Assembly: GCA_038230295.1 (NCBI GenBank)
Contig: JBBRNM010000006.1
Span: forward strand, 1 to 59,944
DNA from: Candidatus Limnocylindrales bacterium
Lineage (GTDB): Bacteria > Chloroflexota > Limnocylindria > Limnocylindrales > CSP1-4
Direction of reading: 5' to 3'
DNA: 59,944 nucleotides
The notes beneath the pieces were generated by a model. It saw only the letters and a program-made list of their open reading frames with translations, searched no databases and was not told where the DNA came from. The stretch's first letter is position 1. Every line of letters begins with the position of its first letter. The position numbers were made by a program, and so were the translations under genes. Shown one piece after another: positions 3,160-50,431 of the stretch.

Positions 3160-4464
3160 TCATGCGGCAGCCGGCTCGAGCTCGGCCGCGCCGGCCGGCA
3201 GATACGTCAGGACGACGCGGTTGTCGGCCCGGAACACGTCGGCGGATACACGTCGGATGTCCTCGGCGGTGACCGACAGGTAGCGCGGCAGCATGCGGTT
3301 GATCAGGTCGGGATCGTCGAAGAGCGTGGCGTACATCGACAGGCGGTCGGCTCGCTCGTCGACCCGCATCAATGCGCCCAGCTCGTCGGCCTCGGTCAAT
3401 GCCCGCGCTCGTTCCAGCTCGTCGGGCGAGATCGGCTCGCGCGTGATCCGCTCGAGCTCTTCCCAGAACACCGCCTCGAGCAGCTCGAGATCAGTGCCGG
3501 GTCGTGCGGTGGCCCAGCCGGCGGTCACGGAGGCGCCACCCGTGAAGCCCATCGAGAAGAGCGCCACGTCCTGCGCCAGTCGCTCATCGCGGACCAGCCG
3601 GCGATGGAGCCGGCTGCCCTTGCCGCCGGCGAGGATCTGGCCGGCGAGATCGAGCGCGTCGAGGCGCGGGTCGCCGTAGGCGGGCGCCCGGAACCCCCAG
3701 AACAGGCGCGGTAGCGGCACGCGATCCGGAACGATCTCGCGAATCTCGCCCCCGAGCGTCGCCGGGAGCGACAGGTCGGGCAGCTTGACAGGCAGGTTCG
3801 GATTCGCCGGGATGCCGCCGAAGTAGCGCGCGACCCACGTTCGGATCCTGGCGGACTCGACGTCGCCCACGATCGTGATCACGGCGTTATTGGGGGCGTA
3901 GTGCAGCCGGAAGAACGAGCTCACGTCCTCCAGCGACGCGGCGTCGAGGTCCTCCATCGATCCGATCGTCGGATGGTGGTAGGGATGGCTTTCGGGGAAG
4001 AGCGCCCCGAACATCCGCTCGCTCCATGATCCGTACGGCCGGTTGTCGTAGGACTGCCGCTTCTCGTTCTTCACGACCTCGCGCTGGTTGTCGAGGTTCT
4101 CCTGCGAGAGGGCATCGAGGAGGGTGCCCATGCGGTCGGCCTCGAGCCAGATCGCCAGCTCCACCTGGTGAGACGGCATCGTCTCGTAGTAGTTCGTCCG
4201 GTCGAGCCAGGTGCTGCCATTCATGACCCCGCCCGCGGCCTGGACGAGGGCCATGTGCTCCGCCTTGCCGACGTGAGCCGAGCCCTCGAACATGACGTGC
4301 TCGAAGAGGTGGGCGAAGCCCGTCTTGCCCGGCTGCTCGTGCTTGGAGCCAACGCCGTACCAGAGGTTGATCGCCGCGACCGGAACGAGGTGATCCTCGG
4401 CGATGATCAGCCGGAGGCCGTTGGGCAGGCGCTCATCACTGAACGTGACAATGGGGACAGGCAC
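3160..4464 (-). CDS. M16 family zinc peptidase (pitrilysin-like), catalytic subunit
   Basis: GFAHLFEHVMFEGS (HxxEH), NGSTWLDRTNYYE, REVVKNEKR. Confidence 0.93.
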   Translation of the reverse strand: MPVPIVTFSDERLPNGLRLIIAEDHLVPVAAINLWYGVGSKHEQPGKTGFAHLFEHVMFEGSAHVGKAEHMALVQAAGGVMNGSTWLDRTNYYETMPSHQVELAIWLEADRMGTLLDALSQENLDNQREVVKNEKRQSYDNRPYGSWSERMFGALFPESHPYHHPTIGSMEDLDAASLEDVSSFFRLHYAPNNAVITIVGDVESARIRTWVARYFGGIPANPNLPVKLPDLSLPATLGGEIREIVPDRVPLPRLFWGFRAPAYGDPRLDALDLAGQILAGGKGSRLHRRLVRDERLAQDVALFSMGFTGGASVTAGWATARPGTDLELLEAVFWEELERITREPISPDELERARALTEADELGALMRVDERADRLSMYATLFDDPDLINRMLPRYLSVTAEDIRRVSADVFRADNRVVLTYLPAGAAELEPAAA

Positions 4465-4499
4465 CCGGCGATGCTAACGCAGCGCGGGAGGCCGGTGCG

Positions 4500-4782
4500 T
4501 CACGGGCCGATCTCGACGAACCCTGCCGCGCTGAAGTCGCCGTCGAACGCGAGCGCCTCGGTCATTCGTCGTTGACGCATCACGGCGAAGCTCGTGGCGT
4601 CGACGAACGAGTACGAGCGCTCATCGTGGCGATACAGCCAGGCCCAGGCGTCGGCCTCGGTGGCCTCGCCGACGTGAACGATGACCAACCGTCCCGACCG
4701 CTGCGCGCTCTGCGAACGCAATTGCCTCGGCATGGCCGAGGCGCCGCCGGAGGAACGTCCACATCTCGCCGATGACGGTATC
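4500..4782 (-). pseudogene. vapC: VapC (PIN) toxin remnant, VapC20-like, 5'-truncated and frameshifted
   Basis: DTVIGEMWTFLRRRLGHAEAIAF in one frame, then a shift near 4705 to VHVGEATEADAWAWLYRHDERSYSFVDATSFAVMRQRRMTEALAFDGDFSAAGF. The N-terminal DTS motif and a start are absent. Confidence 0.75.
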
Positions 4783-4863
4783 CGCCTCTCACCGTCGATC
4801 GGCGATTGCTGGATCGACTGGCGGGCAACGCCCTGAGGACGCCGGCTCGAAGAGCCTGTTGCC

Positions 4864-5250
4864 CTACGCGAGCTCGATATCGGTCTGGGAGAAATCGTCG
4901 CCCTTGGCGAGGAGCGGTTCGCCGGCAACCCGGGCAGCGGCGTAGGCGAGGCAATCCCCGAAGTTGAGGCTCGCGGGATGTCTCGATCGGCCGAAACGCC
5001 ACCAGGCCGAGAGGGCGGCCTCCCAATGATCGACGCCGAACTCGATCACGACGGCGTCGGCGACGGCGACCAGCTGGGCGACCAACTCGTGGGCATCCTC
5101 CCCGATCCGCGCGGATAGGACGATACCGGCCTCGACCAGCGTGGGCGCGCCGACCCCGACCGTGCTCGCCCCATTGATCTTCTCAACCAAAGCGCCACGG
5201 TCCGGTTCGTCAAGAGCGATGGCCACCAGGGCCGAGCTGTCGAGGATCAC
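4864..5250 (-). CDS. vapC: VapC PIN-domain ribonuclease toxin
   Basis: VILDSSALVAI...TLVEAGIV...HPASLNFGDCLAYA...KGDDFSQTD; the GTG start overlaps the vapB stop (GTGA). Confidence 0.93.
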   Translation of the reverse strand: MILDSSALVAIALDEPDRGALVEKINGASTVGVGAPTLVEAGIVLSARIGEDAHELVAQLVAVADAVVIEFGVDHWEAALSAWWRFGRSRHPASLNFGDCLAYAAARVAGEPLLAKGDDFSQTDIELA

Positions 5251-5519
5251 GCGCTGTCCGGACCGAAACCGAGAATCGCTTCCTCCTCGTCCTTGGGCAC
5301 GGCCTTTCCGCGGACGTTTTCGGGAAGGCGTGGCCAAAACCGCCGTTCCAGGAGACGGACCATCCGGTCCCCGCGCGCCTCGCCGCCTCGAGCAAGCAGC
5401 AGTCGCTCTTTTCGCTCCCTCAGTGCCCGACGGACGGCACCCGTCTTCGTCTCTCCCGTGAGCGCCGAGACCTCGCTGGCGAGTCGTTCGGTCTCTGGAT
5501 CCTTGATGTTAAGGGCCAT
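5247..5519 (-). CDS. vapB: VapB antitoxin
   Basis: MALNIKDPETERLASEVSALTGETKTGAVRRALRER is a ribbon-helix-helix VapB N-terminus; directly upstream of vapC. Confidence 0.9.
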   Translation of the reverse strand: MALNIKDPETERLASEVSALTGETKTGAVRRALRERKERLLLARGGEARGDRMVRLLERRFWPRLPENVRGKAVPKDEEEAILGFGPDSA

Positions 5520-5547
5520 GGTGTAACCATACCAGCATGGTGTAACC
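5517..5547. promoter_or_regulatory. Putative VapBC operator: 12-bp direct repeat over the vapB -10 and start
   Basis: CATGGTGTAACC at 5517-5528 and 5536-5547; minus-strand TATGGT lies 6 nt before the vapB ATG. Confidence 0.55.
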
Positions 5548-5550
5548 GCA

Positions 5551-5728
5551 CGAAGATGGAACCAATCCTCCACGCTCACTCCCTCTAGGCCAACACCGGG
5601 CGCATCGAGCCCGAACGAGGGACCAAGCCGTGACGCGAGAGTTGGTCGAACGAGCGCGAGGTGGCGATCGCGAGGTGTTCGAGAGCCCGGCCGCCGCGGT
5701 GATCGGCAACCTCTTCAACATCGCTCAA
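5551..5728 (+). repeat. Diverged copy of the ECF sigma-1 upstream region and first 33 codons (partner 6734-6911)
   Basis: Shared CGAAGATGGAAC, CCCTCTAG and AACGAGGGACCAAGCCGTG; peptides MTRELVERARGGDREVFESPAAAVIGNLFNIAQ vs MRRDLVLRARGGDREAFASLAAESVGRLFNIAQ. Confidence 0.9.
5558..5588 (+). promoter_or_regulatory. Putative ECF promoter P1, copy 1 (GGAAC-N18-CCCTCTAG)
   Basis: Boxes and spacing are identical to 6741-6771 while the spacer has diverged; GGAAC is a typical ECF -35. Confidence 0.6.
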
Positions 5729-6718
5729 CCCCGGACTCCGGCACCTCGATCTGGCCGCACTGTGAGCTCCGTCCGGACGCGCGCTTCGACCTTGGTCGTC
5801 GCGCTCTCTGCGCTTGCGATCTCGGCCTGCTCAGCCAGCCCTCCGGCCCCGTCGATTGCACCCTCCCAGGTGTCGGCGCAGCCGTCCTCGACGATCGCGC
5901 CGACCCCGACGGCCTCCCCGGCCCTCACCCCGGGTGTCGGCACCTCGAGCGAAGACACGCTCGGCGTCTCGGTGCCCGCCGACACGGCGGCCGCGACGAT
6001 GCTCCATGTCCCGGTCCTCATGTATCACCGGGTCATGCCCCCGTCGCTGCTCAAGGTCGACGAACGGTGGCCCGACCTCTACGTCGATCCGGTGACGTTT
6101 GACGCTCAAATAGCGGCCATGAAGTCTCGGGGTTGGCACACAGTCACGACGGGCCAGCTGGCCGCCGCCGTCATGGCCCGGAGGAGCCTCCCGTCGCACT
6201 CCGTCGTCATCACCTTCGACGACGGCCGGCCGGACAACTACACCTACGCCTTCCCGATCTTGAAGAAATACGGCTTCGTCGCGACCTTCTTCATCGTCTC
6301 GGGTCGGATCGGAAGGACCAGCCACATCACGGCAAGCCAGCTCCAGGAGATGGCAGCCGCCGGGAACGAGCTCGCCGATCACACCTGGGACCACACCGAT
6401 CTCACGACCCTGACCTACGCCCAGGCGCGGTTCAGGATCCGGGCCGCCGCCGACGCCATCGAGTCGCTTGTCGGCGTTCGACCGACCACCTTGGCCTATC
6501 CCTACGGTCACTACGACTCGACCGTCCTGGCGGCCGCCGACGCCGAGGGAATGTACCTGGCCTTCACGGTCCATGCCGGGGCCTGGGAAAGCGCCGCCAC
6601 CCGGCTCTTCCAGCCGCGGCTCCGCGTCCAGGGCCTCGTCCGACAGGCCGATGGGAGCTACTCGGGCGGAACGACCGCGCAGCAGCTCCTCGCCCGGCTG
6701 GCACCGTATGCCGACTAA
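5630..6718 (+). CDS. Polysaccharide deacetylase (CE4/NodB) lipoprotein; the native start may be GTG 5762
   Basis: Lipobox AISAC, S/P/T linker, VPVLMYHRV, ITFDDG, DHTWDH, LAYPYG. Confidence 0.9.
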   Translation: MTRELVERARGGDREVFESPAAAVIGNLFNIAQPRTPAPRSGRTVSSVRTRASTLVVALSALAISACSASPPAPSIAPSQVSAQPSSTIAPTPTASPALTPGVGTSSEDTLGVSVPADTAAATMLHVPVLMYHRVMPPSLLKVDERWPDLYVDPVTFDAQIAAMKSRGWHTVTTGQLAAAVMARRSLPSHSVVITFDDGRPDNYTYAFPILKKYGFVATFFIVSGRIGRTSHITASQLQEMAAAGNELADHTWDHTDLTTLTYAQARFRIRAAADAIESLVGVRPTTLAYPYGHYDSTVLAAADAEGMYLAFTVHAGAWESAATRLFQPRLRVQGLVRQADGSYSGGTTAQQLLARLAPYAD

Positions 6719-6740
6719 ATCGAGCCCGTCGGCCGAAGAT

Positions 6741-6771
6741 GGAACGAATTCGGCGCTCGCATTCCCTCTAG
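6741..6771 (+). promoter_or_regulatory. Putative ECF promoter P1, copy 2 (autoregulatory, sigma-1)
   Basis: GGAAC-N18-CCCTCTAG about 40 nt upstream of the sigma GTG at 6813. Confidence 0.6.
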
Positions 6772-6812
6772 TGCACAACCGGCGCATCCTGCCGGCAACG
6801 AGGGACCAAGCC

Positions 6813-7367
6813 GTGCGGCGAGACCTGGTGCTACGAGCCCGAGGCGGCGATCGCGAGGCGTTCGCGAGCCTCGCCGCTGAGTCGGTCGGGCGGCTGTTCA
6901 ACATCGCCCAGCTCATGCTCCGGGACCGCGATCTCGCCGATGACGCCGTCCAGGAGACACTCGTCCTCGCGTGGCGGGACCTGAAAGGGCTGCGCGACCT
7001 CGACGGGTTCGATGCCTGGCTGCATCGAGTCCTCGTGCGATGCGTATACCGCGAGGCGAACCGTGAGCGACGGCACACGGTCCGCGCGGCCGTCGTGGGC
7101 GAGATCTCCTCGCATCCCGACGCCTCACGTGACGTCGAGAATCGCGACGCGCTGGATCGGGGCTTCCGACGCCTCAGGTCCGACCATCGAGCCGTCCTCG
7201 TCCTCCATCACTACCTCGGCCTCTCCGACGACGAAGCCGCGGCAGCCCTCTCGATCCCGACCGGAACGATCAAGTCGCGGCTCAGCCGCGCGACCTCGGC
7301 GCTTCGCTCGGAGCTCGACGCCGATGCCCGCTCAGCGGATCGCCTTGCCATGGAGTCCGTCCGATGA
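6813..7367 (+). CDS. ECF RNA polymerase sigma factor (sigma-1)
   Basis: GDREAF, ADDAVQETLVLAWR, FDAWLHRVLV (region 2); LHHYLGLSDDEAAAALSIPTGTIKSRLSRA (region 4); GAGGG RBS. Confidence 0.95.
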   Translation: MRRDLVLRARGGDREAFASLAAESVGRLFNIAQLMLRDRDLADDAVQETLVLAWRDLKGLRDLDGFDAWLHRVLVRCVYREANRERRHTVRAAVVGEISSHPDASRDVENRDALDRGFRRLRSDHRAVLVLHHYLGLSDDEAAAALSIPTGTIKSRLSRATSALRSELDADARSADRLAMESVR

Positions 7368-8737
7368 CCGCAGATCGCAACCTCGATCGTGAGCTTGGGT
7401 CGTGGTTCGCCGAGCAGGCGAGCTCCGTGCCGGCTGAGACGCTCCTGCAGCGCGGGCTCGAACGCGTGGCTGCGACGCGCCAGCGTCCGGGGTGGCTCGT
7501 GGGCGGCGTGGCGCTGCCCCGTCCGTTCGCGGCTCCGGCGATCGTGCCTGCCTGGGTGGTCATCCTCCTCATCGCGCTGGCGGCCGCGGCCGTCGTGGCG
7601 ACGGGCGCGCGGCTACTCCTGGCTCCGTCGCTGGCGATCGTCGAGACGTCGCCGATCCCCTCGACCTTCGTCGAGCCATCGGCGGCGCCGAGCCCGACGT
7701 CGACAGCGACGCCCTCGGGGCCACTCGGGGGAGGCCCGATCCTGGCCCATGAATTCAAGCGAATCAGCGACCCGGACCCTCACGGTGTCTTTGCCATCGA
7801 CGCGGGGACGGGCGCCCGGACGCTGCTCGGCACGTTGCCGGGCGAGGCCGTGACGGGCTCGTCCAATCCGTACACGTTCCAATTCAGTGCGGACCGCACC
7901 CATGTCCTCATCCTCGGTGGGTCGCTGCAGGCGCCGACCGCCGTGAGCCGGGCATTCGGGTTCATCGCCAGCGCCGATCTCGACCAAAGCTGCTGCAAGG
8001 ACGGCATGGAGTGGATCACGTTGTCGCCTCGCGGCGACCGAGTCGCGGCGATCCACGTGAGCCGATTCGATGCGACCATCGAGATCGTCATTCTCGATAT
8101 CGCGGGTGGCGGCATATCGCGACTTCCGCTGCCCGCGGGCATCGGCTGGGGCGGACCGCTCGCCTGGTCACCCGACGAAGCAGCATTGGTCGTGCCCGGC
8201 TGTCGGCCCTGCAACAAGGCGGCGACACCGACCGAGAAGCAGACATCGGATCACAGCCACATCTACGTCGTGCCAGTCGACGGTTCGCCGTGGCGCGAGC
8301 TCCTCGACGTCGACAACGGTGCTGCCATCGGCGCGGTGGCGCCCGACGGGAAGACGCTCGCGGTCGACACCTTCATCTGTGCGTCGGGCAGCTACATGCC
8401 CCGCTGCGACCCGTCCGAAGGCACGCACACCCTGAGCACCCTATCGCTCGCGGATGGCGTCCAGACGCCGCTCGGGGTCGTGCCCTCGCTCACCGGCATC
8501 GCCTGGTCGCCGGATGGCACCCGGATCGCGTACGGGGCGAAGGACGGGATCCACGTCATGAACGCAGACGGCAGTGGCACGGTCAAGCTCGGCGACGGCG
8601 TCGGCTACGGTGCCGACTGGTCGCCCGACGGCCAATGGCTCCTTCTCAGGCGCGACGGCTTCGACCTGTGGATCGCCTCCGCCGATGGAAGCGACCTGCG
8701 GCAGATCGGAACGGGCTATGCCGGAGGGACCTGGTGA
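7364..8737 (+). CDS. Putative membrane anti-sigma factor with an extracytoplasmic TolB/PD40 beta-propeller
   Basis: ATGA overlap with the sigma gene; ~45-aa cytoplasmic N-terminus, one TM helix, S/P/T linker, WSPDG-type repeats. Confidence 0.8.
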   Translation: MTADRNLDRELGSWFAEQASSVPAETLLQRGLERVAATRQRPGWLVGGVALPRPFAAPAIVPAWVVILLIALAAAAVVATGARLLLAPSLAIVETSPIPSTFVEPSAAPSPTSTATPSGPLGGGPILAHEFKRISDPDPHGVFAIDAGTGARTLLGTLPGEAVTGSSNPYTFQFSADRTHVLILGGSLQAPTAVSRAFGFIASADLDQSCCKDGMEWITLSPRGDRVAAIHVSRFDATIEIVILDIAGGGISRLPLPAGIGWGGPLAWSPDEAALVVPGCRPCNKAATPTEKQTSDHSHIYVVPVDGSPWRELLDVDNGAAIGAVAPDGKTLAVDTFICASGSYMPRCDPSEGTHTLSTLSLADGVQTPLGVVPSLTGIAWSPDGTRIAYGAKDGIHVMNADGSGTVKLGDGVGYGADWSPDGQWLLLRRDGFDLWIASADGSDLRQIGTGYAGGTW

Positions 8738-8801
8738 CCGGGCTACTGCGCGATCGCAAGCGCCCGCCAGCTACTGCAACGCATCGAGAGAGGAGGGCCC
8801 C

Positions 8802-10127
8802 GTGACATCCAGCGGAACTCGCGCCGTCACGACCTTGATCGCGATCACCGCGCTCGTCATGTCCGCTTGCACGGGCGTTGTCACGACGTCATCCCCAGCC
8901 TCGCAGACATCGTTGCCGACGTCGGCGCCGCCGTCATCGACCTCCGCGCCACTTCCGACGGCCTCCCCGTCCCTCCCACAGGGTGTCGGCACCTGGAGCG
9001 CCACGGGCAGCATGGTTTCAGCCCACGGCCCGGAGTCCACGGCGACCCTGTTGGCCGACGGCAAGGTGCTCGTCGCGGGGGGCGAGGACGAGTCAGCAGG
9101 GGGTAGCGGCAACGTATCCGTGACGGCCGCCGCCGAGCTCTACGACCCGAGTACCGGGCAATGGACGGCGACGGGCGACATGACGATGTCGCGCTCCCAG
9201 CACACCGCGACCCTGCTTCAAGACGGCAGGGTCCTCGTGGCGGGCGGCGTCTGTTCAAAGCGATGCCCGGCAAAATTTGATCCCGACCTTGATCCCTCCG
9301 GAGCGGTCGCCACTGCGGAGATCTACGACCCGCGCACCGGCAAGTGGAACGTCACGGGGAGCATGACGACGCCCCGCGCACTGCACACGGCAACCCTCCT
9401 TGCCGACGGCAAGGTCCTGGTGGCCGGAGCCGAACACGCGGACGAGAATTTTGGCTGGCCCGAACCCTTCGCTCGGGGAATCCTTGCCTCCACCGAGCTC
9501 TACGACCCGGGCACCGGGAAGTGGACCGCGACCGGCAGCATGACCACGCCGCGGACCCAGCAACTCGCCGCACTGCTCCGTGACGGCAAGGTCCTGGTGG
9601 TGGGGGGCATCGGGCCGGTGTCTCCAACGGCACACGATGTCCTGGCCTCCGCCGAGGTCTACAACCCGGCCACCGGGAAATGGACGGCCACCGGCCGCCT
9701 GACGACGGCGCGCGCGTATGGAGCGGCGGCCACCATCCTCAAGGATGGCAAGGTCCTCCTGACAGGCGGTGACGGTCCCGGTGACCCCAACCTGGCCTCG
9801 GCCGAGCTCTACGACCCGCTCAGTGGGACATGGACGACGACGGGCAGCATGGCCACGGCACGCGGCGTGCTCGCCGCAACCCTGCTCGCCGATGGCAAGG
9901 TCCTGGTCTCGGCTGGCTGTGATTGCGGGGGGCCCGGCCCTTTGCTGGCGTTCGCCGAGATCTACGACCCGAGCAGCGGGACATGGACGGCCGCCGCAAG
10001 CCTGATCACCGCGCGTTGGGGGCACACCGCCACCCTGCTCAAGAACGGCAAGGTCCTCGTGGCGGGCGGGGGCACTAATGGCGGATCGGCGTCGTCCGCC
10101 GAGCTCTATGACGAAGCGGGGACCTGA
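8802..10127 (+). CDS. Kelch-repeat lipoprotein 1
   Basis: GAGGAGG RBS, lipobox VMSAC, about 6 repeats of HTATLLxDGKVLVAGG...AELYDP..G.W. Confidence 0.9.
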   Translation: MTSSGTRAVTTLIAITALVMSACTGVVTTSSPASQTSLPTSAPPSSTSAPLPTASPSLPQGVGTWSATGSMVSAHGPESTATLLADGKVLVAGGEDESAGGSGNVSVTAAAELYDPSTGQWTATGDMTMSRSQHTATLLQDGRVLVAGGVCSKRCPAKFDPDLDPSGAVATAEIYDPRTGKWNVTGSMTTPRALHTATLLADGKVLVAGAEHADENFGWPEPFARGILASTELYDPGTGKWTATGSMTTPRTQQLAALLRDGKVLVVGGIGPVSPTAHDVLASAEVYNPATGKWTATGRLTTARAYGAAATILKDGKVLLTGGDGPGDPNLASAELYDPLSGTWTTTGSMATARGVLAATLLADGKVLVSAGCDCGGPGPLLAFAEIYDPSSGTWTAAASLITARWGHTATLLKNGKVLVAGGGTNGGSASSAELYDEAGT

Positions 10128-10379
10128 GCCCGCGCGAGCTCGAGCGTCCCCGAACCCTTTAGACCGGTCGTCCGCGCACCGCAAAGGGATTCGACAGCCT
10201 CTCCCTGACCGCCGACGGCGCGCTCTGTGGCGCCGTCGCGTTCCACCAAGCGGCCGCGGCCGAGGGCATTGGGGCCTAGTGACGGTCTCGGAAACGTTGG
10301 TGCCATCGTGCTGGGTGTGGTGAGCCGTCCTGACCGCCCCGAGCGGCGGCGGAAGCGTCGACCTTCTGGTGCGAATTTG

Positions 10380-10407
10380 CCAACCGGGGCGCGCGCGCAG
10401 ACATCAG
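10380..10407 (+). promoter_or_regulatory. Putative ECF promoter P2, copy A
   Basis: CCAACC-N15-ACATCAG upstream of TolB-like gene 1; matches three other copies. Confidence 0.6.
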
Positions 10408-10458
10408 TGGGTCGAGGGGTCCGTGTGGGATTCCGGACGACGACGCTTGATGGAGGCG

Positions 10459-11610
10459 ATGGTGACAGGCCGAACGATGCTACGAACCAGCCGGGTCGTG
10501 AACGTGGTCGCTGTTCTCTTTCTGGCAGCATGCACCGGGGCGGCGCCTACTCCTTCTGGGACAGAGTCCCCGGCTGCTCCGTCAACGGCGACCCCGTTGG
10601 CGGAGGCATCGCCGTCGTCGACGCCCAGCGGAAGCCAGGCGACAGCGACGAAGCTCGGGGGCCAGATCGTGTTCGAGAACGTCGGTGACGACGCGGCTCA
10701 TTCGCAGGTCTGGGTCGAGAACGCTGACGCCTCGCAAGCACGCCAGCTCGTTACCGATTCGTTCAGCGACGGTGAGCCCGCACTATCGCCCGACGGCAAG
10801 ACCGTGGCCTTTGATCAGTCCCGCGGCGTCCCCATAGACGCCATGCTCGCCGATCCCGGCGTGGACGGCGGCATCATGCTGGTCAACGTCGACGGCTCGG
10901 GCCTTCACCGACTCGCGACACACTTGGGTATCCGCAACAAGTGCGGCGACGGAATCGAAGGCGACGCGTTTTCGCCGGATGGACGAACGCTCGTGTTCAC
11001 GCGGCTCTGCGTCACGGGCTCGTTTGGTCTCTGGATCGCGGCCGTCGATGGCTCAGACGAGCGCGAGGTCACCAGAAGCACGACGTCGCCCCAGGTCCTC
11101 CGTCGGTTCCTTCGCGACGGAATCGGATTTGTTCACCTCGAGGATCATCGCGCGACCTGGTCACCCGACGGGAAGCACTTGGTCTTCGAGCGGATCGACA
11201 CGTCGACGACACCGGAACGTGCCGCCATCTTCACGATCGCGGTCGACGGTTCCGACCTTCGCCAGGTGACAGATTGGTCCGTTGACGGGAACGACCCGGA
11301 CTGGTCGCCAGATGGAAGGCTGATCGTCTTCAATGCCCCTGCGGAGGAAGGTGGCGAGCAGAACATCTACACGATCCATCCCGACGGCTCCGGCCTGACG
11401 AAGCTCACTGATTTCAAAGGGACGGACCAGACGACGTTCCACCCGTCGTGGTCGCCGGACGGTAGGCACATCCTCTTCTCGCACAGCCCCGCGACGGACG
11501 GCTTCGTCGACTTACTCGTCATGAACGCCGACGGGACGGACCGTCATGCCCTCGCCGCGACGAAGATCCACGAGAACCACGCCTTCTGGGGGCCGAGTCC
11601 GAGTCCATGA
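10459..11610 (+). CDS. TolB-like (PD40) beta-propeller lipoprotein 1
   Basis: Lipobox LAAC, linker, repeats PALSPDG/AFSPDG/TWSPDG/PDWSPDG/PSWSPDG. Start uncertain (10450-10477). Confidence 0.85.
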   Translation: MVTGRTMLRTSRVVNVVAVLFLAACTGAAPTPSGTESPAAPSTATPLAEASPSSTPSGSQATATKLGGQIVFENVGDDAAHSQVWVENADASQARQLVTDSFSDGEPALSPDGKTVAFDQSRGVPIDAMLADPGVDGGIMLVNVDGSGLHRLATHLGIRNKCGDGIEGDAFSPDGRTLVFTRLCVTGSFGLWIAAVDGSDEREVTRSTTSPQVLRRFLRDGIGFVHLEDHRATWSPDGKHLVFERIDTSTTPERAAIFTIAVDGSDLRQVTDWSVDGNDPDWSPDGRLIVFNAPAEEGGEQNIYTIHPDGSGLTKLTDFKGTDQTTFHPSWSPDGRHILFSHSPATDGFVDLLVMNADGTDRHALAATKIHENHAFWGPSPSP

Positions 11611-11644
11611 ACAGCGTGCGACAGAGCGGCGAGGCAACTTTGGG

Positions 11645-11672
11645 CCAACCGCTGAACGAGCGCGTGCATCAA
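11645..11672 (+). promoter_or_regulatory. Putative ECF promoter P2, copy B (autoregulatory, sigma-2)
   Basis: CCAACC-N15-GCATCAA about 60 nt upstream of sigma-2. Confidence 0.7.
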
Positions 11673-11731
11673 TGGTGCATGGACAGAACGCGTGGCCGGG
11701 TGACCGACCGGGCAGGTCAGGCGCAGGACTG

Positions 11732-12307
11732 ATGGAGCCGGTCGCGGTCGTGAACCGCGCGCTCGTCTCGACCGAGTCGGCGTTCGTCCGCCGCGCCGCC
11801 AAAGGCGATGCAGGCGCCTTCGAACAGCTCGTCGCGACGAGGTCTCAGCATGCATTTCGAATCGCGCGAGCCATCCTCGGCAACGACGCCGACGCGCGCG
11901 ATGCGACGCAGGATGCCCTCGTCTCGGCCTGGAGGCAGCTCCCGAGTCTCCGCGATCCGGAGAGCTTCGACGCGTGGCTCCGGAGGATCCTGGTGAACGC
12001 GTGCCAGGCGCAGATCCGCAGCCGTCGCCATGTTCGCGAGATCAGTCTCGATGACTCGTTCGATCGCAAAGCGCCCGGCCCGGGGATCGCTGAGCAGGTC
12101 GGCGACACCGAAGTGCTCAGCAAGGCGTTCGACCGACTCGACGTCGAGAAGCGATCGATCCTCGTCCTCCATTACCTCAACCACGAACCCGTCGCTTCGA
12201 TCGCCACCGACCTGAAGATCCCGAGTGGGACCGCGAAGTGGCGGCTTTCCGAGGCGCGCGCGGCGTTGCAACGTGCCCTCACGGCAGAAGGCGAGGCCCG
12301 ATCGTGA
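11732..12307 (+). CDS. ECF RNA polymerase sigma factor (sigma-2)
   Basis: GDAGAFEQL, DARDATQDALVSAWRQLPSLRDPESFDAWLRRILVN, IPSGTAKWRLSEAR. Confidence 0.95.
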   Translation: MEPVAVVNRALVSTESAFVRRAAKGDAGAFEQLVATRSQHAFRIARAILGNDADARDATQDALVSAWRQLPSLRDPESFDAWLRRILVNACQAQIRSRRHVREISLDDSFDRKAPGPGIAEQVGDTEVLSKAFDRLDVEKRSILVLHYLNHEPVASIATDLKIPSGTAKWRLSEARAALQRALTAEGEARS

Positions 12308-13707
12308 CCGCGCGACGACCCGTGCTGACCGATTCGATGATCGAGCGAATGCTCGTCGAGCGAGCAGGTGCCGAAACGCCCGCCGACCTGACGCAGGGTA
12401 TTCTCCGGGCCGCCGCGGCCGTCCGACAGAACCGGCGAACACCATTCCTGCCCGCGCTTCCCGACCGGCGCACACAGGTGCTGCTCGCCGCGGCCGTGGT
12501 CGGGCTCCTCGTGCTCGCGACCGCTCTCGCCTTGACCGGAGCGTCGCGCCTCTTCCGGGTTCAGCAACTCGTTGTGGCGCCGACTTCGTCGCCGACGCTG
12601 ATCGTCGACGCGTCGCCGTCGGCGGCGCCTATCGCCTTGAGTACACCAGGACCGACCCAGAGTGCGCTGATCGCGTTCCCGACCCGACCTGGGATGCTCG
12701 AGTCGATCGCTGACTTCCTCGTGGCCTCAGACACAGTCGGCTGGGTCAGGACGAATGTGCCTGCTGCGATTTACCGAACGACGGACCTGGGCTCCACGTG
12801 GACGGAGGTTCGACCGCCGGGTTGGTCAGCCGCTGCCGCGGCTGCTTTCGTCGACGTCGACACGATGTACGCAGAGGCCGCGGGGACCATCTCGGCGACG
12901 CACGACGGTGGGGTGACATGGGTCGACGTGGCCGTGGATAAGGCTCTGATCTCAGGCCGGGCTGACTTCACGTTCCGCACCGCTACGGATGCCTACGCAA
13001 CGTTTCCCGCGGAGGGCGCCGACCCCCTCCTCGTGTACCACACGACGGACGGCGGCAGGACTTGGACGGGACCCCTGGCCGGAAAGGTGCCGCACTTGGA
13101 GGCGAGCATGGGGAAGGTGGCGGGGCCACACGGCGAGTTCCTCCTCCAAAGCGCGGGTAAGTTCCCGAACAAACCATTCGACAACCGATTCTTCCTCTCG
13201 GCAGACGGGGGTGTGACTTGGACGGAATACACCTTCCCGATCAGGGTTGGGTCGCCGGCGAATTCGATGAAGTCGGTGTCGGCCATCGACCGCGAAGACA
13301 ATGGACGCCTCCTCGTTTCGATCCGGATCAGTCCCGACGGTCAGCTTGATCTCCCGGACGCGATCTACGAGAGTGGCGGCGATACGGCTACCTGGCGCCT
13401 CATCGAGCAGCTGCCGCTCGGCGCATCAGTTCAATTCCTCTCACCCACCGATTGGGTGCGATTCTCCAACGCGCCGTCGGCGATCGCCTGGACCGTCGAC
13501 GCGGGCGGCCACTGGGAGTCGATCAGTCCGTCAACCTCGCTCTACGACTTTCAGCCCGAGGCGGCGCATCAGTTCGCGACAACGAGAACGGGTTGGGCGA
13601 TCAAGCAGTGCGGATTTTCGGCTGCTGCGGGCTGCACGGACCCCCACGCCACACTGCTGTTCGGGACCAGAGATAGCGGAGCTTCGTGGACGCAGGTCGG
13701 GAAGTGA
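12304..13707 (+). CDS. Putative membrane anti-sigma factor with an Asp-box/BNR beta-propeller
   Basis: GTGA overlap with sigma-2; TM helix VLLAAAVVGLLVLATALAL; repeats TTDLGSTW, THDGGVTW, TTDGGRTW, SADGGVTW, TVDAGGHW, TRDSGASW. Confidence 0.8.
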   Translation: MTARRPVLTDSMIERMLVERAGAETPADLTQGILRAAAAVRQNRRTPFLPALPDRRTQVLLAAAVVGLLVLATALALTGASRLFRVQQLVVAPTSSPTLIVDASPSAAPIALSTPGPTQSALIAFPTRPGMLESIADFLVASDTVGWVRTNVPAAIYRTTDLGSTWTEVRPPGWSAAAAAAFVDVDTMYAEAAGTISATHDGGVTWVDVAVDKALISGRADFTFRTATDAYATFPAEGADPLLVYHTTDGGRTWTGPLAGKVPHLEASMGKVAGPHGEFLLQSAGKFPNKPFDNRFFLSADGGVTWTEYTFPIRVGSPANSMKSVSAIDREDNGRLLVSIRISPDGQLDLPDAIYESGGDTATWRLIEQLPLGASVQFLSPTDWVRFSNAPSAIAWTVDAGGHWESISPSTSLYDFQPEAAHQFATTRTGWAIKQCGFSAAAGCTDPHATLLFGTRDSGASWTQVGK

Positions 13708-14978
13708 ACTGGCAACGGTCCGCCGCTGCGACCGACCTCAACCGCCCGTGGCTCGCGCTCCTGGGAGCCGTCGGATTGCTCACGGCCGCATGTGCCCCGT
13801 CGGTCGCGGCTCCGGGACCATCGGCCTCTCCACGAGTCGTAATATCCACGACGTTCGCAGCGTCTACGTCGCAGCCATCGTCCCGCGCAACTCCAACTTC
13901 CTCGGTCCCCGCCTCTGCATGGGCCACCGTCGGCTCGATGAGCACGCCTCGGGTCGAGTTCACGGCAACATTGCTTCGCGACGGCAAGGTCCTTGTCGCC
14001 GGCGGATTCGCGAATGGCAACGGCGAGGACCCGCGCGCGTCGGCCGAACTCTACGATCCCCAAACGCGATCGTGGAGTCCGACCGGGCCTATGCGCGAGG
14101 CGAGAGCGGGTCAATCCGCGACGCTGCTCCCCGACGGGAACGTGCTCATAGCTGGCGGCGACAGCAGCCCAGGGGCCCCGCTCGCCTCAGCAGAGCTCTA
14201 CAACCCCTTGCGCGGGGCATGGACGGCAGTCAAGCCGATGGGTAGCGCTCGAAGTGACCACACCGCGACACTGCTTCGAAACGGGAAGGTCATCATTGCC
14301 GGCGGGTCGACGGCGGATGGACCCACTGCGTCAACAGAGATCTACGATCCGCAAGGGGGGACGTGGTCCCGCGGCCCAACCATGGCGGTCGCCCGTGCCG
14401 TTCGTACCGCAAACCTCCTTCCCGACGGTCGCGTCCTTATCACCGGAGGCGTTGGCCGTGGATCGGTCGGGCTGTCTTCGTCAGAGCTCTATAACCCGAT
14501 CTCAAATTCGTGGCGCAACGCACGCGCGATGAACAGCATTCGTGCGGCTCACACCTCCACGCTCCTGGCGGTCGGCCGCGTGCTCGTCGCGGCCGGGCTG
14601 AGCGGCGGTTTCGCGGGCGACCTCAACTTGAGCGAAATCCTCGCGTCGGCCGAGCTCTACGACCCGCGCACGGACTCCTGGACGATGACAGGGAGCATGG
14701 AGGCTGCGCGGTTCCAGTACCCCGCAATCATCCTGGCGGACGGCAGGGTGGTAGCGATCGCCGGAGACACCCTCGGCCCGGGTCCGCTCGCCTCGGTCGA
14801 GATCTACGACCCCAGCGAGGGATCATGGACGACGATTCAGGCAGTGATCGAGGGCCGTGCAGCTGCGGTTGCGATCACCCTGCGGGACGGCGATGTCCTC
14901 GTCGTTGGTGGTGAGGGTCCGGGCGCTTCGGGACTCGCCTCCGCGGAACTGTTCAATCCCGCCCTACCCACCACGTGA
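13704..14978 (+). CDS. Kelch-repeat lipoprotein 2
   Basis: GTGA overlap; lipobox TAAC; repeated TATLLxDGxVLVAGG...AELYDP. Confidence 0.9.
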   Translation: MNWQRSAAATDLNRPWLALLGAVGLLTAACAPSVAAPGPSASPRVVISTTFAASTSQPSSRATPTSSVPASAWATVGSMSTPRVEFTATLLRDGKVLVAGGFANGNGEDPRASAELYDPQTRSWSPTGPMREARAGQSATLLPDGNVLIAGGDSSPGAPLASAELYNPLRGAWTAVKPMGSARSDHTATLLRNGKVIIAGGSTADGPTASTEIYDPQGGTWSRGPTMAVARAVRTANLLPDGRVLITGGVGRGSVGLSSSELYNPISNSWRNARAMNSIRAAHTSTLLAVGRVLVAAGLSGGFAGDLNLSEILASAELYDPRTDSWTMTGSMEAARFQYPAIILADGRVVAIAGDTLGPGPLASVEIYDPSEGSWTTIQAVIEGRAAAVAITLRDGDVLVVGGEGPGASGLASAELFNPALPTT

Positions 14979-15013
14979 CGCAACCCCGCTCGGGACGTTG
15001 CTGAGAAATATCC

Positions 15014-15041
15014 CCAACCGACGCCGCGGCCGTGGCATCAA
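15014..15041 (+). promoter_or_regulatory. Putative ECF promoter P2, copy C
   Basis: CCAACC-N15-GCATCAA. Confidence 0.65.
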
Positions 15042-15122
15042 GGCGGTATAGGCCGTAGTCGGCGAACGAGCCCTCGTCTCGAGGATCAGCGGATGGAGCC
15101 CGTCGCGTCCTCGGAAAGAGGT

Positions 15123-15150
15123 CCAACCGCTCGGTCGCTGGAAGCATCAA
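15123..15150 (+). promoter_or_regulatory. Putative ECF promoter P2, copy D
   Basis: CCAACC-N15-GCATCAA about 60 nt upstream of TolB-like gene 2. Confidence 0.7.
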
Positions 15151-15213
15151 CGGATCAGTAAAGGCGATAGGAGACAAATCCGGGGTCGTCCCGCGGTCCT
15201 GAGGAGGCGACTC

Positions 15214-16371
15214 ATGTGGTCCCGGAGATTTCACCCGAAGAGCGCAGCCGTGATCGCTGCGGCCATCGTCGCCGCTGCCTGCTCATCTGCCGGACCAGCG
15301 ACGGCGCCGCTCGGCTCGACCCCGGGCGCGACTTCGGCCGGCCTCGTCACGTCCCCATCGCCGCGGCCTTCACCGCCGGCATCGGGGCCATCGCCCGCGC
15401 CGTCGGAATCGACGACGGTCGGAGCCGGCGAGGAGTGGGTCGTCTTCCAGTCCCTGGCCGACCAGTTCGACCCGGCCGCTGACCAGGATGGGATTGAGCA
15501 TGACGACACGATCTTCCTGGTTCGGACCGATGGCACAGGACTTCATCGACTCCCGCCCGTTGACCTCGTCGGGTCGGAGATTCGGCCCCGCTGGTCACCG
15601 GACGGAAACCAGATCGCCTTCATCCGCGGCCACCTGCCCGGTGACATCAATGAGCTCTGGATCATCAACGCCGACGGCAGCGGCGGAAGGGCCGTGTACA
15701 CGTGCGGCCCGGGGTGCAACACCATCGGGAACCCCGACTGGAGCCCCGATGGCAAGGCCCTCTTCTTCGAGGGCGACTCTGACGTCCCAGCCGAGGGCCC
15801 CCCTCGCACCTTCCAGATGTTCCGGTATGACCTCGCGACCCACGAGACCAAGCCGGCGTTCACTCGTCACGACACGATGACCGCCGAGCAGATGGCGTTG
15901 TCACCGGATGGCACGCAGGTCGTCTTCAGCCGCGGGAAGCGGGACGCCGAGACCCAGAACGCCCTTTTCGTCGCCGATTCGAATGGCGCTCACGAGCGCC
16001 GAATTACCGCGTGGGGCATGGCGGTGGCATATCCCGGATGGTCGGTCACTGGCCGCATCGTCTTCAACACCCACGACCTCCGCGCCGACCCGACGACAAC
16101 GGCCGCCGCGAACATCTACACGATCAACCCGGACGGGAGCAACCTGCGGCAGCTGACGTCGTACCACGCCAACGACACGCGAGCCACCCAGCCGCGCTGG
16201 ACGCAGGACGGACGAGGGATCGTTTACACGCTCGTCACCCGCGACGCCTTCGACCCATACGGCGTGCGCACCTTGGCCTACATGGACGCGGACGGCAGCC
16301 ATGCACGTCTCCTGACCCCCGAACCGATCATCGGGACGCACCCGGAGCTGCGGCCGATCCCACGTTCCTGA
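15214..16371 (+). CDS. TolB-like (PD40) beta-propeller lipoprotein 2
   Basis: GAGGAGG RBS, lipobox AAAC, repeats PRWSPDG/PDWSPDG/ALSPDG. Confidence 0.88.
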   Translation: MWSRRFHPKSAAVIAAAIVAAACSSAGPATAPLGSTPGATSAGLVTSPSPRPSPPASGPSPAPSESTTVGAGEEWVVFQSLADQFDPAADQDGIEHDDTIFLVRTDGTGLHRLPPVDLVGSEIRPRWSPDGNQIAFIRGHLPGDINELWIINADGSGGRAVYTCGPGCNTIGNPDWSPDGKALFFEGDSDVPAEGPPRTFQMFRYDLATHETKPAFTRHDTMTAEQMALSPDGTQVVFSRGKRDAETQNALFVADSNGAHERRITAWGMAVAYPGWSVTGRIVFNTHDLRADPTTTAAANIYTINPDGSNLRQLTSYHANDTRATQPRWTQDGRGIVYTLVTRDAFDPYGVRTLAYMDADGSHARLLTPEPIIGTHPELRPIPRS

Positions 16372-16642
16372 CGAGCCGGCGTTCGACGCGGCCGGAGCAA
16401 GGCTCAGCCGGGCGCCCCAGAGGCGACCAGCGACGCGGCGTTTCCGGAAGGAGCGGCCGAGCGAGACGCGAGCCACTCGCCGAGGGGTCGAACTTAGAAA
16501 AGGCGGTCGATGACGTTCCTCGGCCTCGCACGGATATTTTCCTAGGTGTTCTGCGACTCGGATGCTCAAGACCCGCGTGCCTGTCAGCTCCGGTTGAACA
16601 AACCGAACCGGACGCGATCAACGAGCACCCGACGGTCCCGCG

Positions 16643-17305
16643 CAACAAGAACTCCTCATGCTGCCGGTCATCGAGCGGGAATGGGTGGAGCCCTCCCCGG
16701 GCCAGGCTGAAGAAGAGCGGGATGAACCCGACGAGCAGGGTCCACTGGTTGATCTTGTCGCTGATCAGAGCCCCGAGGGCCGCGGCAGGGCGAAGGGCGA
16801 GCACGAACAGGACCGTGATCACGATCTCCGGCGCCTCGCCCGCGAGCGGGGCGAGCCATTGGACGAGGAAGAACGGATCGATGCCGAGCTGGCGGCCCGT
16901 GCCGAGCAGGGACTCGGCGAAAGGCTGGGCCGCCAGGACGATGACGATCGCGGCGCCAATCGCGAGGGCGGCGATCACGACCCATTGGCGGCGGATCGGC
17001 AGGCTCGCAAGGGCGGCCGCCGGCCCGACTTCTTCGTCGTTATTGTCTTCGTCGACTTCCCGCTTCAATCGCGACAGCCGCCACAGGTACGCGGCGAAGA
17101 TGAGGCCAAGCACGACGGTGTCGATGATGTCGATCTGGCCCTTCGCGACGATCACGAACGCATAGAGGCTCGCGATCGCCAGGAACGCGATCTCGACGGC
17201 GTTCGCGGCCTGAAGAGGGACGCTCCGCGCGCGTGATCGCCACCAGTACAGGAGTGCGATAAGCGGCCAGCCGGTCCCGATCAGGAGACGGTTCGCGCCG
17301 GTCAT
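16643..17305 (-). pseudogene. Ca2+/cation (CaCA, Na/Ca exchanger) antiporter internal fragment
   Basis: MTGANRLLIG.GWP and QWLAPLAGEAPE...ISDKINQWTLL are internal CaCA alpha-repeat segments. N-terminal helices are missing and the frame continues into non-membrane sequence after HEEFLL. Confidence 0.75.
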
Positions 17306-17321
17306 GCGCTGACGCGGGCGA

Positions 17322-17381
17322 GGGACCTGAGCGAGCCGGGGCCGAGCGAGCCTGGGCCGAGGGAGCCTGGGCCGAGGGAGG
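17322..17381. repeat. 15-bp tandem repeat (3 good units plus 1 degenerate)
   Basis: CGGGGCCGAGCGAGC / CTGGGCCGAGGGAGC / CTGGGCCGAGGGAGG at 17337-17381, between the carB stop and the antiporter fragment. Confidence 0.7.
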
Positions 17382-17394
17382 TCCGCGTCGCGAC

Positions 17395-20943
<3,549 letters not shown>

Positions 20944-49723: not shown

Positions 49724-50431
49724 ATGGACACCGACGCCACGCTTACCGCCCGACTCGCCCACGACCTTGACGCCGCGTTCCCGACGCTCGTCGAAACCCA
49801 CCAGGACCGGCTCTACACGATCGCGCTCCGACTGCTCGGGGATCCGCGCGACGCGGAGGAGGTCGCCCAGGACGCGCTCGTGCGCGCCTACCGCGCGATG
49901 TCGGCGTACCCGGCACGACGGATCGCCGAGCTCCGGCTTCGACCGTGGCTCGCCGCCATCACGGTCAACCTGGCCCGGAACCGGCGGCGGCGCCTCGCCG
50001 AGCGACATCCGCCGGTCCAGCTCGATCCGCTTCTTGGCGCCGGCTTCGAGCCGGTGGAGGAGCAACCGGGCCCGGCCTCGCTCGCGACACGCCGCGAACG
50101 CATCGAGGAGCTCGCCGAAACCATGCTTCGGCTCCCGCCGGCCATTCGCATCGCCGTCGTCCTCCGCCACGTCGACGGGCTCTCCGTCGCCGAGACCTCG
50201 GAAGCGCTCGGGCGGCCGGAAGGCACCGTGAAGGCCCAGGTCTCCCGCGGGCTCGATCGGCTGCGCCAGCTGCTCGACGACTCGGAAGCTCAGGCCTCGG
50301 TCACGGCGCACGACACCGAGCTGTCAGGCTCGCCGCCGCGACCGCGCACGGCCGCTGTCGATCCCGCCCACACCGCAGCTCCCCCTTCGACCGAGGGCCG
50401 CGCGTTCGCGGCCGCCGAGGTGCTCCGATGA
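49724..50431 (+). CDS. ECF RNA polymerase sigma factor (sigma-3) with a C-terminal extension
   Basis: DAEEVAQDALVRAY, RPWLAAITVNLARN, GLSVAETSEALGRPEGTVKAQVSRG. Confidence 0.95.
   Translation: MDTDATLTARLAHDLDAAFPTLVETHQDRLYTIALRLLGDPRDAEEVAQDALVRAYRAMSAYPARRIAELRLRPWLAAITVNLARNRRRRLAERHPPVQLDPLLGAGFEPVEEQPGPASLATRRERIEELAETMLRLPPAIRIAVVLRHVDGLSVAETSEALGRPEGTVKAQVSRGLDRLRQLLDDSEAQASVTAHDTELSGSPPRPRTAAVDPAHTAAPPSTEGRAFAAAEVLR

Follow-up and report, generated by a model that had tools for sequence, protein, structure and literature searches.

The 59,944-nucleotide (nt) stretch analyzed here (the window, which is one entire contig, C6) comes from a Candidatus Limnocylindrales bacterium and carries at 4490 to 17450 an accessory island of ~13 kb, recognized by comparison with same-genus genomes, that holds all of the genes at issue. 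Within it stand two tandem modules, each consisting of genes for an extracytoplasmic function (ECF) sigma factor, a membrane-anchored anti-sigma factor with an outer beta-propeller, a Kelch propeller lipoprotein, and a PD40 (TolB-like) propeller lipoprotein. The best explanation, to which we give a probability of about 55%, is that this is a strain-specific island with two ECF switches of separate lineages at its core, in which the Kelch lipoproteins are detached sensors. Much of bacterial signaling runs through ECF sigma/anti-sigma pairs; to our knowledge, the sensed signal is unknown for most of them, and the roles of accessory outer proteins are known in few models. New here are the island nature of the block, a duplicated sigma-1 promoter before a CE4 deacetylase gene, fused propeller anti-sigmas in relatives, and a predicted binding between the first sigma factor and its anti-sigma. 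The genes are called sig1 and sig2 (ECF sigmas), asf1 and asf2 (anti-sigmas), kel1 and kel2 (Kelch lipoproteins), pd1 and pd2 (PD40 lipoproteins), and CE4; numbered labels denote genomes (G, with the host as G000), contigs (C), loci in relatives (L), and public sequencing runs (X). The host genome comprises 2.44 Mb in 162 contigs, is 92% complete, and has ~70% G+C.

The nine genes lie on the plus strand at 5.6 to 16.4 kb. A first-pass annotation of this DNA had described them as twin tandem arrays of sigma factor, transmembrane (TM) anti-sigma factor, Kelch lipoprotein, and PD40 lipoprotein, highly diverged from each other; all nine are present in that order with their Pfam domains confirmed, and identities of 38% (sig1/sig2), 44% (kel1/kel2), and ~30% (pd1/pd2) bear out the divergence. 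The sig1 product (6813 to 7367, 184 amino acids [aa]) matches Sigma70_r2 (E = 3.1e-9) and r4_2 (4.7e-9) and scores 58 bits against TIGR02937, and the sig2 product (11732 to 12307, 191 aa) matches r2 (6e-14), r4_2 (1.6e-7), and Sigma70_ECF and scores 82.5 bits, against a cut-off of 42.9. Both possess sigma-2 and sigma-4 domains only, the size (~180 to 200 aa) and domain content of ECF (group 4) factors. Both pass this NCBIfam superfamily model and no equivalog or subfamily model, the best of which, TIGR02983, gives 107 bits versus a cut-off of 141.6. Each sigma gene shares 4 nt with the gene that follows (ATGA at 7364 to 7367 and GTGA at 12304 to 12307), as the annotation had reported, and sigma factor and single-pass anti-sigma factor are translationally coupled in each module.

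The structure models show one plan for both anti-sigma factors, in which two N-terminal helices and a single TM helix are linked by a disordered stalk to an all-beta propeller. In asf1 (7364 to 8737, plus strand), a two-helix N-terminal domain precedes a TM segment at residues 61 to 85, a Ser/Pro/Thr stalk, and a TolB-like propeller at residues 126 to 457; in asf2 (12304 to 13707, plus strand), N-terminal helices, a TM segment at residues 56 to 78, and a stalk lead to a BNR/Ycf48-like propeller with five Asp-boxes. Pfam recognizes PD40 weakly in the former (4.4e-5) and Sortilin-Vps10 (7.3e-9) and BNR_2 (7.4e-6) in the latter. The models, which were built on small alignments of relatives, reach predicted local distance difference test (pLDDT) values of 69.5 for asf1, with TolB propellers as the best Protein Data Bank (PDB) fold matches (1.3e-12), and 71.7 for asf2, matching Ycf48 and then sortilin and GH74 xyloglucanases (9.4e-12). 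Together with the domain calls and the binding prediction below, these models uphold the proposal that the loci are ECF sensing modules with extracytoplasmic propellers.

Neither anti-sigma factor carries a class I anti-sigma domain of the zf-HC2 or RsrA-ChrR type, which has four helices in ~80 to 90 aa and often the motif HxxxCxxC. The ~45 to 55 residues before the TM segments contain two predicted helices, without a Cys/His motif or a Pfam family; the N terminus of asf1 belongs to no known anti-sigma family in Pfam, and a profile of this domain found no PDB sequence match at E <= 10. A model of sig1 in complex with asf1 residues 1 to 59 scored 0.69, versus 0.05 for the best of three controls, so the complex-model check suggested in the annotation came out positively for the first pair. 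Of solved complexes, 58 of 80 attain the mark applied to such scores, as do 2 of 110 mismatched pairs; these counts apply only approximately here because the model used custom alignments. At least 89% of contacts are shared between runs, the partner pLDDT is at least 66, and the asf1 N terminus contacts residues 11 to 59 and 114 to 168 of sig1. It thus touches both sigma domains, a mode known from solved sigma/anti-sigma pairs. The N terminus of asf1 is thus predicted to clamp sig1 between its sigma-2 and sigma-4 domains.

This N-terminal part travels with the sigma factor while the ectodomain is swapped: in G045, a sigma factor 77% identical to sig1 is paired with an anti-sigma factor whose overall identity to asf1 is only 29%. 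When residues 1 to 75 of asf1 were used in a word-indexed search, just two other proteins emerged, one of which has a Kelch ectodomain and 65% N-terminal identity. A scan of genome contigs with asf1 alone yielded no relative, and an ortholog search across 40 relatives gave only partial matches (best E, 7.8e-7). An alignment-based scan was set aside, having caught only the generic PD40 motif and mostly unrelated PD40 proteins from many phyla; a sigma gene lay directly upstream in 4 of its 80 loci (L090, L118, L126, and L133). In another relative (L065:10826-12727, minus strand), a frame of 633 aa joins a sigma factor, an N-terminal anti-sigma domain, and a PD40 propeller, which may be a sigma/anti-sigma fusion or an open reading frame (ORF) over-extended across a 4-nt overlap.

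The remaining propellers are encoded as separate proteins. The kel1 gene (8802 to 10127) starts with GTG at 8802, 64 nt past the asf1 stop, behind the ribosome-binding site (RBS) GAGGAGGG; its product matches Kelch_6 at 4.5e-38 (Kelch families at 1e-36 to 1e-38) and has the lipobox MSAC. After a gap of ~330 nt follows pd1 (10477 to 11610; PD40, 1.3e-23; lipobox LAAC), which starts with ATG at 10477 or, alternatively, at 10459. In the second module, the GTG start of kel2 (13704 to 14978; Kelch_1, 5.1e-44; lipobox TAAC) overlaps the asf2 stop as GTGA, a third 4-nt overlap that the annotation had missed, and pd2 (15214 to 16371; PD40, 2.1e-15; lipobox AAAC; RBS GAGGAGG) follows after 236 nt. All four genes are on the plus strand. 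With CE4 included, five proteins have a lipobox and fit the definition of bacterial lipoproteins of the Lgt/Lsp pathway, so that lipidation is predicted, and the host genome encodes Lgt and LspA at other loci. The Ser/Pro/Thr fraction is 0.39 to 0.60 in six measured stalks, and the stalk of kel1 is rich in these residues by eye, in line with the earlier description of six propellers of three repeat classes on such stalks. No sigma or anti-sigma remnants were found in the intergenic gaps (all E > 0.5); a scan for sigma-70 promoters and terminators gave 0 promoters and two terminator-like sites, both inside pd1 and fewer than in shuffled sequences.

What the Kelch lipoproteins might do is suggested by relatives in which the parts are joined. 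The best asf2 relatives, in G328 and G099, are single ORFs of 827 aa that comprise an N-terminal domain, a TM segment, a BNR propeller, a linker, and a Kelch propeller (in G341, the BNR+Kelch gene is split by a frameshift). The kel2 product aligns with the C-terminal half of the 827-aa proteins, and the break in the window falls at the linker of the fused form, with kel2 there possessing its own lipoprotein signal peptide. Other anti-sigma factors combine PD40 with Kelch (L173, L175, and L178, by Pfam) or Kelch with Kelch (L179 by Pfam; L177, L181, L183, and L186 by custom hidden Markov models [HMMs] only). All of these fused forms follow a sigma gene, and a Kelch propeller ends the anti-sigma ectodomain in at least six Pfam-checked proteins. 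Because relatives thus join the same propeller classes in one anti-sigma polypeptide, the Kelch lipoproteins are most likely detached sensor modules, a natural fusion and fission of propellers that offers a concrete, testable pairing rule. Since kel2 groups with the distal domains of the BNR+Kelch proteins, the fusion that matches module 2 is plausibly orthologous.

The same Kelch propeller also occurs on other chassis. It is found on Ser/Thr kinases (L184:4831-7152 and L189:1931-4018, both on the minus strand), behind zinc-ribbon membrane anchors (L056 and L057), and before an fn3 and a GH5 cellulase domain in a 1,424-aa protein (L176:1762-6036, minus strand). In a tree of Kelch domains with 65 rows, in which 32 of the 62 inner branches remain open, the domains of lipoproteins and those of anti-sigma factors are intermixed, with nine or more state changes at weak support, and the six kel1-type lipoproteins form a clade (Shimodaira-Hasegawa-like approximate likelihood ratio test [SH-aLRT] support of 100). 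A search for longer Kelch relatives was rejected: it was swamped by giant multi-Kelch surface proteins from many phyla, with 7,822 proteins at E <= 1e-20 among the 8,000 candidates scored.

Genes orthologous to those of the lipoproteins recur beside sigma genes, in counts that do not amount to a statistical test, since orthologs are not independent samples. All five kel1 orthologs adjoin a sigma/anti-sigma pair, three lying after it (L043, L044, and L045) and two before a sig2-like pair (L163 and L164), and in each of G214 and G283, a true asf1 ortholog (53% and 43% identity) has a kel1 ortholog (61% and 57%) after it. Likewise, all five pd1 orthologs are beside a sigma gene: three loci (L192, L193, and L194) have the order of sigma gene, recognized anti-sigma-type ORF, and lipoprotein gene; in L191, a gap of ~1 kb separates the sigma gene from the pd1 ortholog, and in L195, the lipoprotein gene is upstream. 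For pd2, two of four orthologs adjoin a sigma gene. These contexts and the fused forms lend support to the earlier suggestion that the lipoproteins may work with the anti-sigma factors as co-receptors or effectors. Among the best 20 sig1 orthologs, the gene that follows encodes a PD40-type anti-sigma factor in ~10 cases and a Kelch-type one in 2 (custom HMMs). Several modules in relatives look broken (L163:4998-7468, L193:10025-11419, and L063:3606-8410), examples being the frameshift-split gene of G341 and fragmented Kelch anti-sigmas in G130 and G388; they may be pseudogenes or assembly errors. Many Kelch matches in genus g6 (e.g., in G246, G156, G160, and G049) hold a single in-frame TAG or TGA, which may mark a read-through gene boundary or be a real feature.

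The regulon of the first switch can be approached through a duplicated promoter. A putative autoregulatory promoter of sig1 at 6738 to 6772 (plus strand) has the best score in the genome (25.9) under a position weight matrix (PWM), and its GGAAC-type -35 box may reflect ECF autoregulation; the motif GGAAC-N18-CC(C)xTA stands upstream of sig1 and of 17 of 17 tabulated sig1-like genes in other genomes, the latter sites having supplied the matrix. By DNA alignment, 230 bp before and into sig1 recur upstream of CE4. The copy has a second sigma-1-type promoter, GATGGAAC-N18-CCCTCTA, at 5555 to 5589 (plus strand), which aligns with 6738 to 6772 and has the second-best score in the genome (PWM, 20.4); it keeps the boxes GATGGAAC and TCCCTCTAG, with a diverged spacer. 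It is followed at 5630 to 5728 (plus strand) by a sigma gene remnant that retains the RBS, a GTG start, and the first 33 codons (99 nt), with 70% aa identity to residues 1 to 33 of sig1 and in frame with CE4. The exact pattern GGAAC-N18-CCCTCTA occurs twice in the window, versus 0.02 expected, and genome-wide only these two sites exceed a PWM score of 19; above 14, there are 10 matches versus 6 in reversed or complemented controls.

Because the promoter and the first 33 codons of sig1 were duplicated before it, CE4 is the single extra target predicted for sigma-1. The gene (5762 to 6718, plus strand) encodes a polysaccharide deacetylase lipoprotein (PF01522, 2e-32) with a signal peptide and a lipobox ending in ISAC, in agreement with the earlier description of a CE4 lipoprotein in the block; its own start is likely GTG at 5762, and the ORF is open from 5630 as well. 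Its stalk DNA at 5872 to 5951 is 83% identical to the kel1 stalk at 8921 to 9000, and the gene thus reads as a mosaic of four parts: the promoter and 5' end of a sigma gene, a lipoprotein leader, a kel1-like stalk, and an esterase domain. Together, the conserved promoter and its CE4 duplicate provide a reporter that could be used as is and point to a first predicted target.

In the favored mechanism, the outer propeller of the anti-sigma factor would bind an external ligand, regulated proteolysis would then remove the anti-sigma factor (an M50 site-2 protease is encoded elsewhere in the genome), and the freed sigma factor would transcribe its own operon and, for sigma-1, the CE4 gene in addition. 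The Kelch lipoproteins would serve as detached, lipid-anchored second sensor propellers beside the anti-sigma ectodomain, and the PD40 lipoproteins would have an accessory role, as a third partner at the surface or as an output. A more far-reaching version, which we advance tentatively, is that anti-sigma factors use the Kelch and perhaps the PD40 lipoproteins as interchangeable receptor subunits that act in trans, such that the halves of a two-part sensor are freely fused, split, and re-paired in this lineage. If true, each strain would own a combinatorial repertoire of extracellular polymer sensors on mobile islands, with the same propeller plugged into Ser/Thr kinases and glycoside hydrolases too.

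Several observations weigh against the favored mechanism. No sigma gene occurs within ~9 kb in 11 of 20 loci of the nearest Kelch relatives, and one is directly adjacent on the same strand in only 7, with several loci being Kelch-only tandems. A Kelch lipoprotein follows the anti-sigma factor in just 1 of the best 20 sig1 orthologs (L064; custom HMMs), and among the loci examined, L043 alone repeats all four genes in order, so the layout is conserved only in part, short of what the annotation claimed. In the Kelch-domain tree, the distal domains of the PD40+Kelch proteins form a clade of their own (SH-aLRT, 99) that is not sister to the kel1 clade; because it sits apart, the fusion evidence for module 1 applies at the family rather than the ortholog level. 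The kel2 domain is on a long branch, and the group that it shares with the BNR+Kelch distal domains has only 88% support. Given the gaps before pd1 and pd2, these genes may or may not be co-transcribed, no sigma-1-type promoter was found before kel1, pd1, sig2, or pd2 (best PWM score, 3.9), and no shared motif was found upstream of sig2-like genes. CE4 was present in 0 of 77 other loci examined, and the glycan ligand considered below is a guess from domain company.

The alternative that survives best, which we regard as rather unlikely, holds that the anti-sigma propeller alone senses and that the lipoproteins (Kelch, PD40, and CE4) are made as members of the regulon, for instance for surface binding, scavenging, or wall modification, and take no part in sensing. 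It would account for the position of the lipoprotein genes downstream in the same orientation, for the Kelch loci that have no sigma gene nearby, and for CE4, an enzyme under a copy of the sigma-1 promoter that has stalk DNA in common with kel1; but a Kelch propeller forms the covalent end of several anti-sigma ectodomains and is also carried by Ser/Thr kinases, which fit a sensing part better than an output, and kel1 orthologs can precede the sigma gene.

Less probable still is a shield, in which the propeller lipoprotein would bind the anti-sigma ectodomain and keep the first protease from cutting it, up to the point at which a signal drives the lipoprotein off. The precedent is the RpoE-RseA-RseB system of Escherichia coli, composed of a sigma factor, a single-pass anti-sigma factor, and a downstream-encoded extracytoplasmic third protein that acts on the outer domain of the anti-sigma factor; there, RseB shields RseA from the first cut until it is displaced. 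The genes of the modules here follow the same three-part arrangement, and the shield would draw on the same fusions and adjacencies as the detached-sensor reading; moreover, kel2 is translationally coupled to asf2, suggesting matched amounts of both proteins. Yet a shield that is part of the same polypeptide, as it would be in the 827-aa forms, could never be released by a signal, and the RseA and RseB/MucB families were found in none of the nine proteins (Pfam and NCBIfam); the sigma-binding part here has ~45 aa with two predicted helices, and the third protein, unlike RseB, is a lipid-anchored propeller. Slightly below this we rank a by-product of island mosaicism, in which recombination of hundreds of paralogous sigma, anti-sigma, and propeller genes at stalk and leader sequences would have left the lipoproteins beside sigma pairs with no working link; an insertion absent from same-genus genomes, the sigma remnant fused to CE4, the CE4/kel1 stalk identity, the PIN fragment described below, and the abundance of sig1-like and Kelch relatives are in keeping with it, but the ortholog contexts of kel1 and pd1 repeat across genera and the 4-nt couplings and in-frame fusions exist.

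Under the detached-sensor reading, we would guess first at an extracellular glycan or cell wall polymer as the signal, because the Kelch relatives sit on a GH5 cellulase, Ser/Thr kinases, and zinc-ribbon proteins, the predicted output is a carbohydrate esterase, and the fold neighbors include GH74 enzymes and oligogalacturonate lyase. Second in rank comes a peptide or protein ligand, since TolB, Ycf48, and sortilin bind peptides. The model for the latter case is SigV/RsiV, in which an ECF sigma factor is freed when the anti-sigma ectodomain binds lysozyme and the regulon includes CE4-type peptidoglycan deacetylases (PMC4183432; bioRxiv 10.1101/2020.07.17.209676). A deacetylase output would be common to both systems, whereas the RsiV ectodomain is described there as a non-propeller one with no lipoprotein partner, and the link of CE4 to sigma-1 here comes from the duplicated promoter only.

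The closest working analogy for a glycan signal is with the SigI/RsgI biomass sensors of Clostridium thermocellum (PMC4711584, PMC10328401, and PMC12203970). According to these papers, there are many paralogous sigma/anti-sigma pairs per genome, the outer modules of RsgI vary and are the same as those on secreted glycoside hydrolases, and an RseP-type cleavage releases the signal. The resemblance concerns the working logic only: the sigma factors there are of the sigma-I type rather than ECF, no protein here matches sigma-I or RsgI_N families in Pfam, and the sensors there are carbohydrate-binding (CBM) or PA14 modules, as opposed to beta-propellers encoded partly as separate lipoproteins. If the propellers do bind glycans, these arrays would be a Chloroflexota counterpart of the clostridial biomass sensors.

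The annotation had known of no described system of this kind, a statement that needs amending for the sigma/anti-sigma pair itself. An experimentally characterized precedent is Tt-RpoE1/Tt-TolB of Thermoanaerobacter tengcongensis (Liu et al. 2012, PMC3397946), in which the gene of a single-pass, TolB-annotated protein directly follows that of an ECF sigma factor. Cytoplasmic residues 1 to 39 of Tt-TolB bind the sigma factor, a TM segment spans 39 to 61, and the C-terminal part covers 62 to 645, an architecture that, by its published description, asf1 shares and from which asf2 departs in having a BNR propeller. Tt-RpoE1 autoregulates, the counterpart in sig1 being the putative promoter; the promoters differ (tGTTAC-N16-CGTC versus GGAAC-N18-CCCTCTA). 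The available text of that paper reports no propeller lipoproteins alongside, only a downstream permease and PtsB in the opposite direction. The likeness of asf1, pd1, and pd2 to TolB of the Tol-Pal system lies in the propeller fold and in partial matches to TIGR02800, which at 98.1 (pd1), 70.2 (pd2), and 18.3 (asf1) bits are far under the cut-off of 343; these proteins have no TolB N-terminal domain in Pfam and are not TolB by this measure, and no tol or pal genes were recognized among the annotated genes of the island. The main text of the ECF reclassification paper (PMC7826278) contains none of the terms propeller, PD40, WD40, Kelch, Chloroflexi, and lipoprotein, and none of the papers searched brings ECF and anti-sigma factors together with PD40 or Kelch proteins in a pertinent context. 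Sigma-factor counts are noted to differ in a 2026 paper on CSP1-4/Limnocylindraceae (PMC13212565), in whose text the words anti-sigma, ECF, Kelch, propeller, and lipoprotein were searched for and not found.

The wider family of these genomes is rich in the components of the modules. Matches to sig1 (E <= 1e-35) occur in 180 of the 261 family genomes sampled, with more than 860 matches in total and up to at least 13 per genome, and relatives of the kel1 Kelch domain occur in 168 of 258 genomes of the family versus 0 of 42 genomes of a small-genome sister family; the family tallies take in the unpublished genomes G249 and G227. The uncultured CSP1-4 Chloroflexota, abundant in soil and sediment, have multiplied one sigma family with interchangeable propeller sensors.

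The island itself is delimited by its neighbors. Of 30 genomes of the genus, 27 have an ortholog of the M16 peptidase gene on its left (window positions up to 4485), and in three same-genus genomes (G018, G005, and G024), this ortholog is followed within ~40 to 1,400 bp by that of the sequence from 17449 onward; the segment of 4.49 to 17.45 kb is therefore an insertion in the host or a loss in these three genomes. The G+C fraction is 0.66 to 0.69 in the island and 0.70 to 0.72 in its flanks, and neither a tRNA gene nor a flanking direct repeat was found at its borders. One contig of 12,390 nt from run X1, possibly the source sample, spans 4291 to 16680 without a difference, so the island is not an assembly artifact. 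Run X3, from the same study, and run X6, from another, also contain identical pieces, and X5 (another study) contains pieces of ~94% identity. Flanking genes of two Chloroflexi metagenome-assembled genomes are ~80% identical to those of the host genome.

The block had been described as bounded by pseudogene fragments, which holds on the left, with a PIN fragment and the 99-nt sigma remnant fused to CE4, but not on the right, where the gene of a Na/Ca-exchanger-type membrane protein (16328 to 17470, minus strand; PF01699, 9.1e-14) is intact. This island member has orthologs in 0 of the 30 genomes of the genus; a second copy in the host (G000:C72:973-1374) is 90% identical over residues 146 to 279. 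At the left edge of the island (4500 to 5579, minus strand), an intact VapBC pair, as predicted earlier, lies beside a second, truncated PIN gene. The longest ORFs encode a VapC-like PIN toxin at 4864 to 5337 (PF01850, 4.3e-16) and a VapB-like antitoxin at 5247 to 5579 (PF07704, Rv0623-like, 2.3e-17), and the fragment at 4500 to 4928 retains the C-terminal half only (Pfam PIN, E = 0.0025, profile positions 61 to 119 of 120).

Elsewhere in the host, Kelch genes are limited to a fragment on C81. A third match to sigma-70 region 2 in the window lies far from the island, at 49787 to 49999. Further sigma/anti-sigma-like pairs with 4-nt overlaps are present in the host genome at G000:C12:14149-17995, C34:17821-21732, and C61:1598-4392, and a PD40 lipoprotein gene is divergently placed at the C34 pair.

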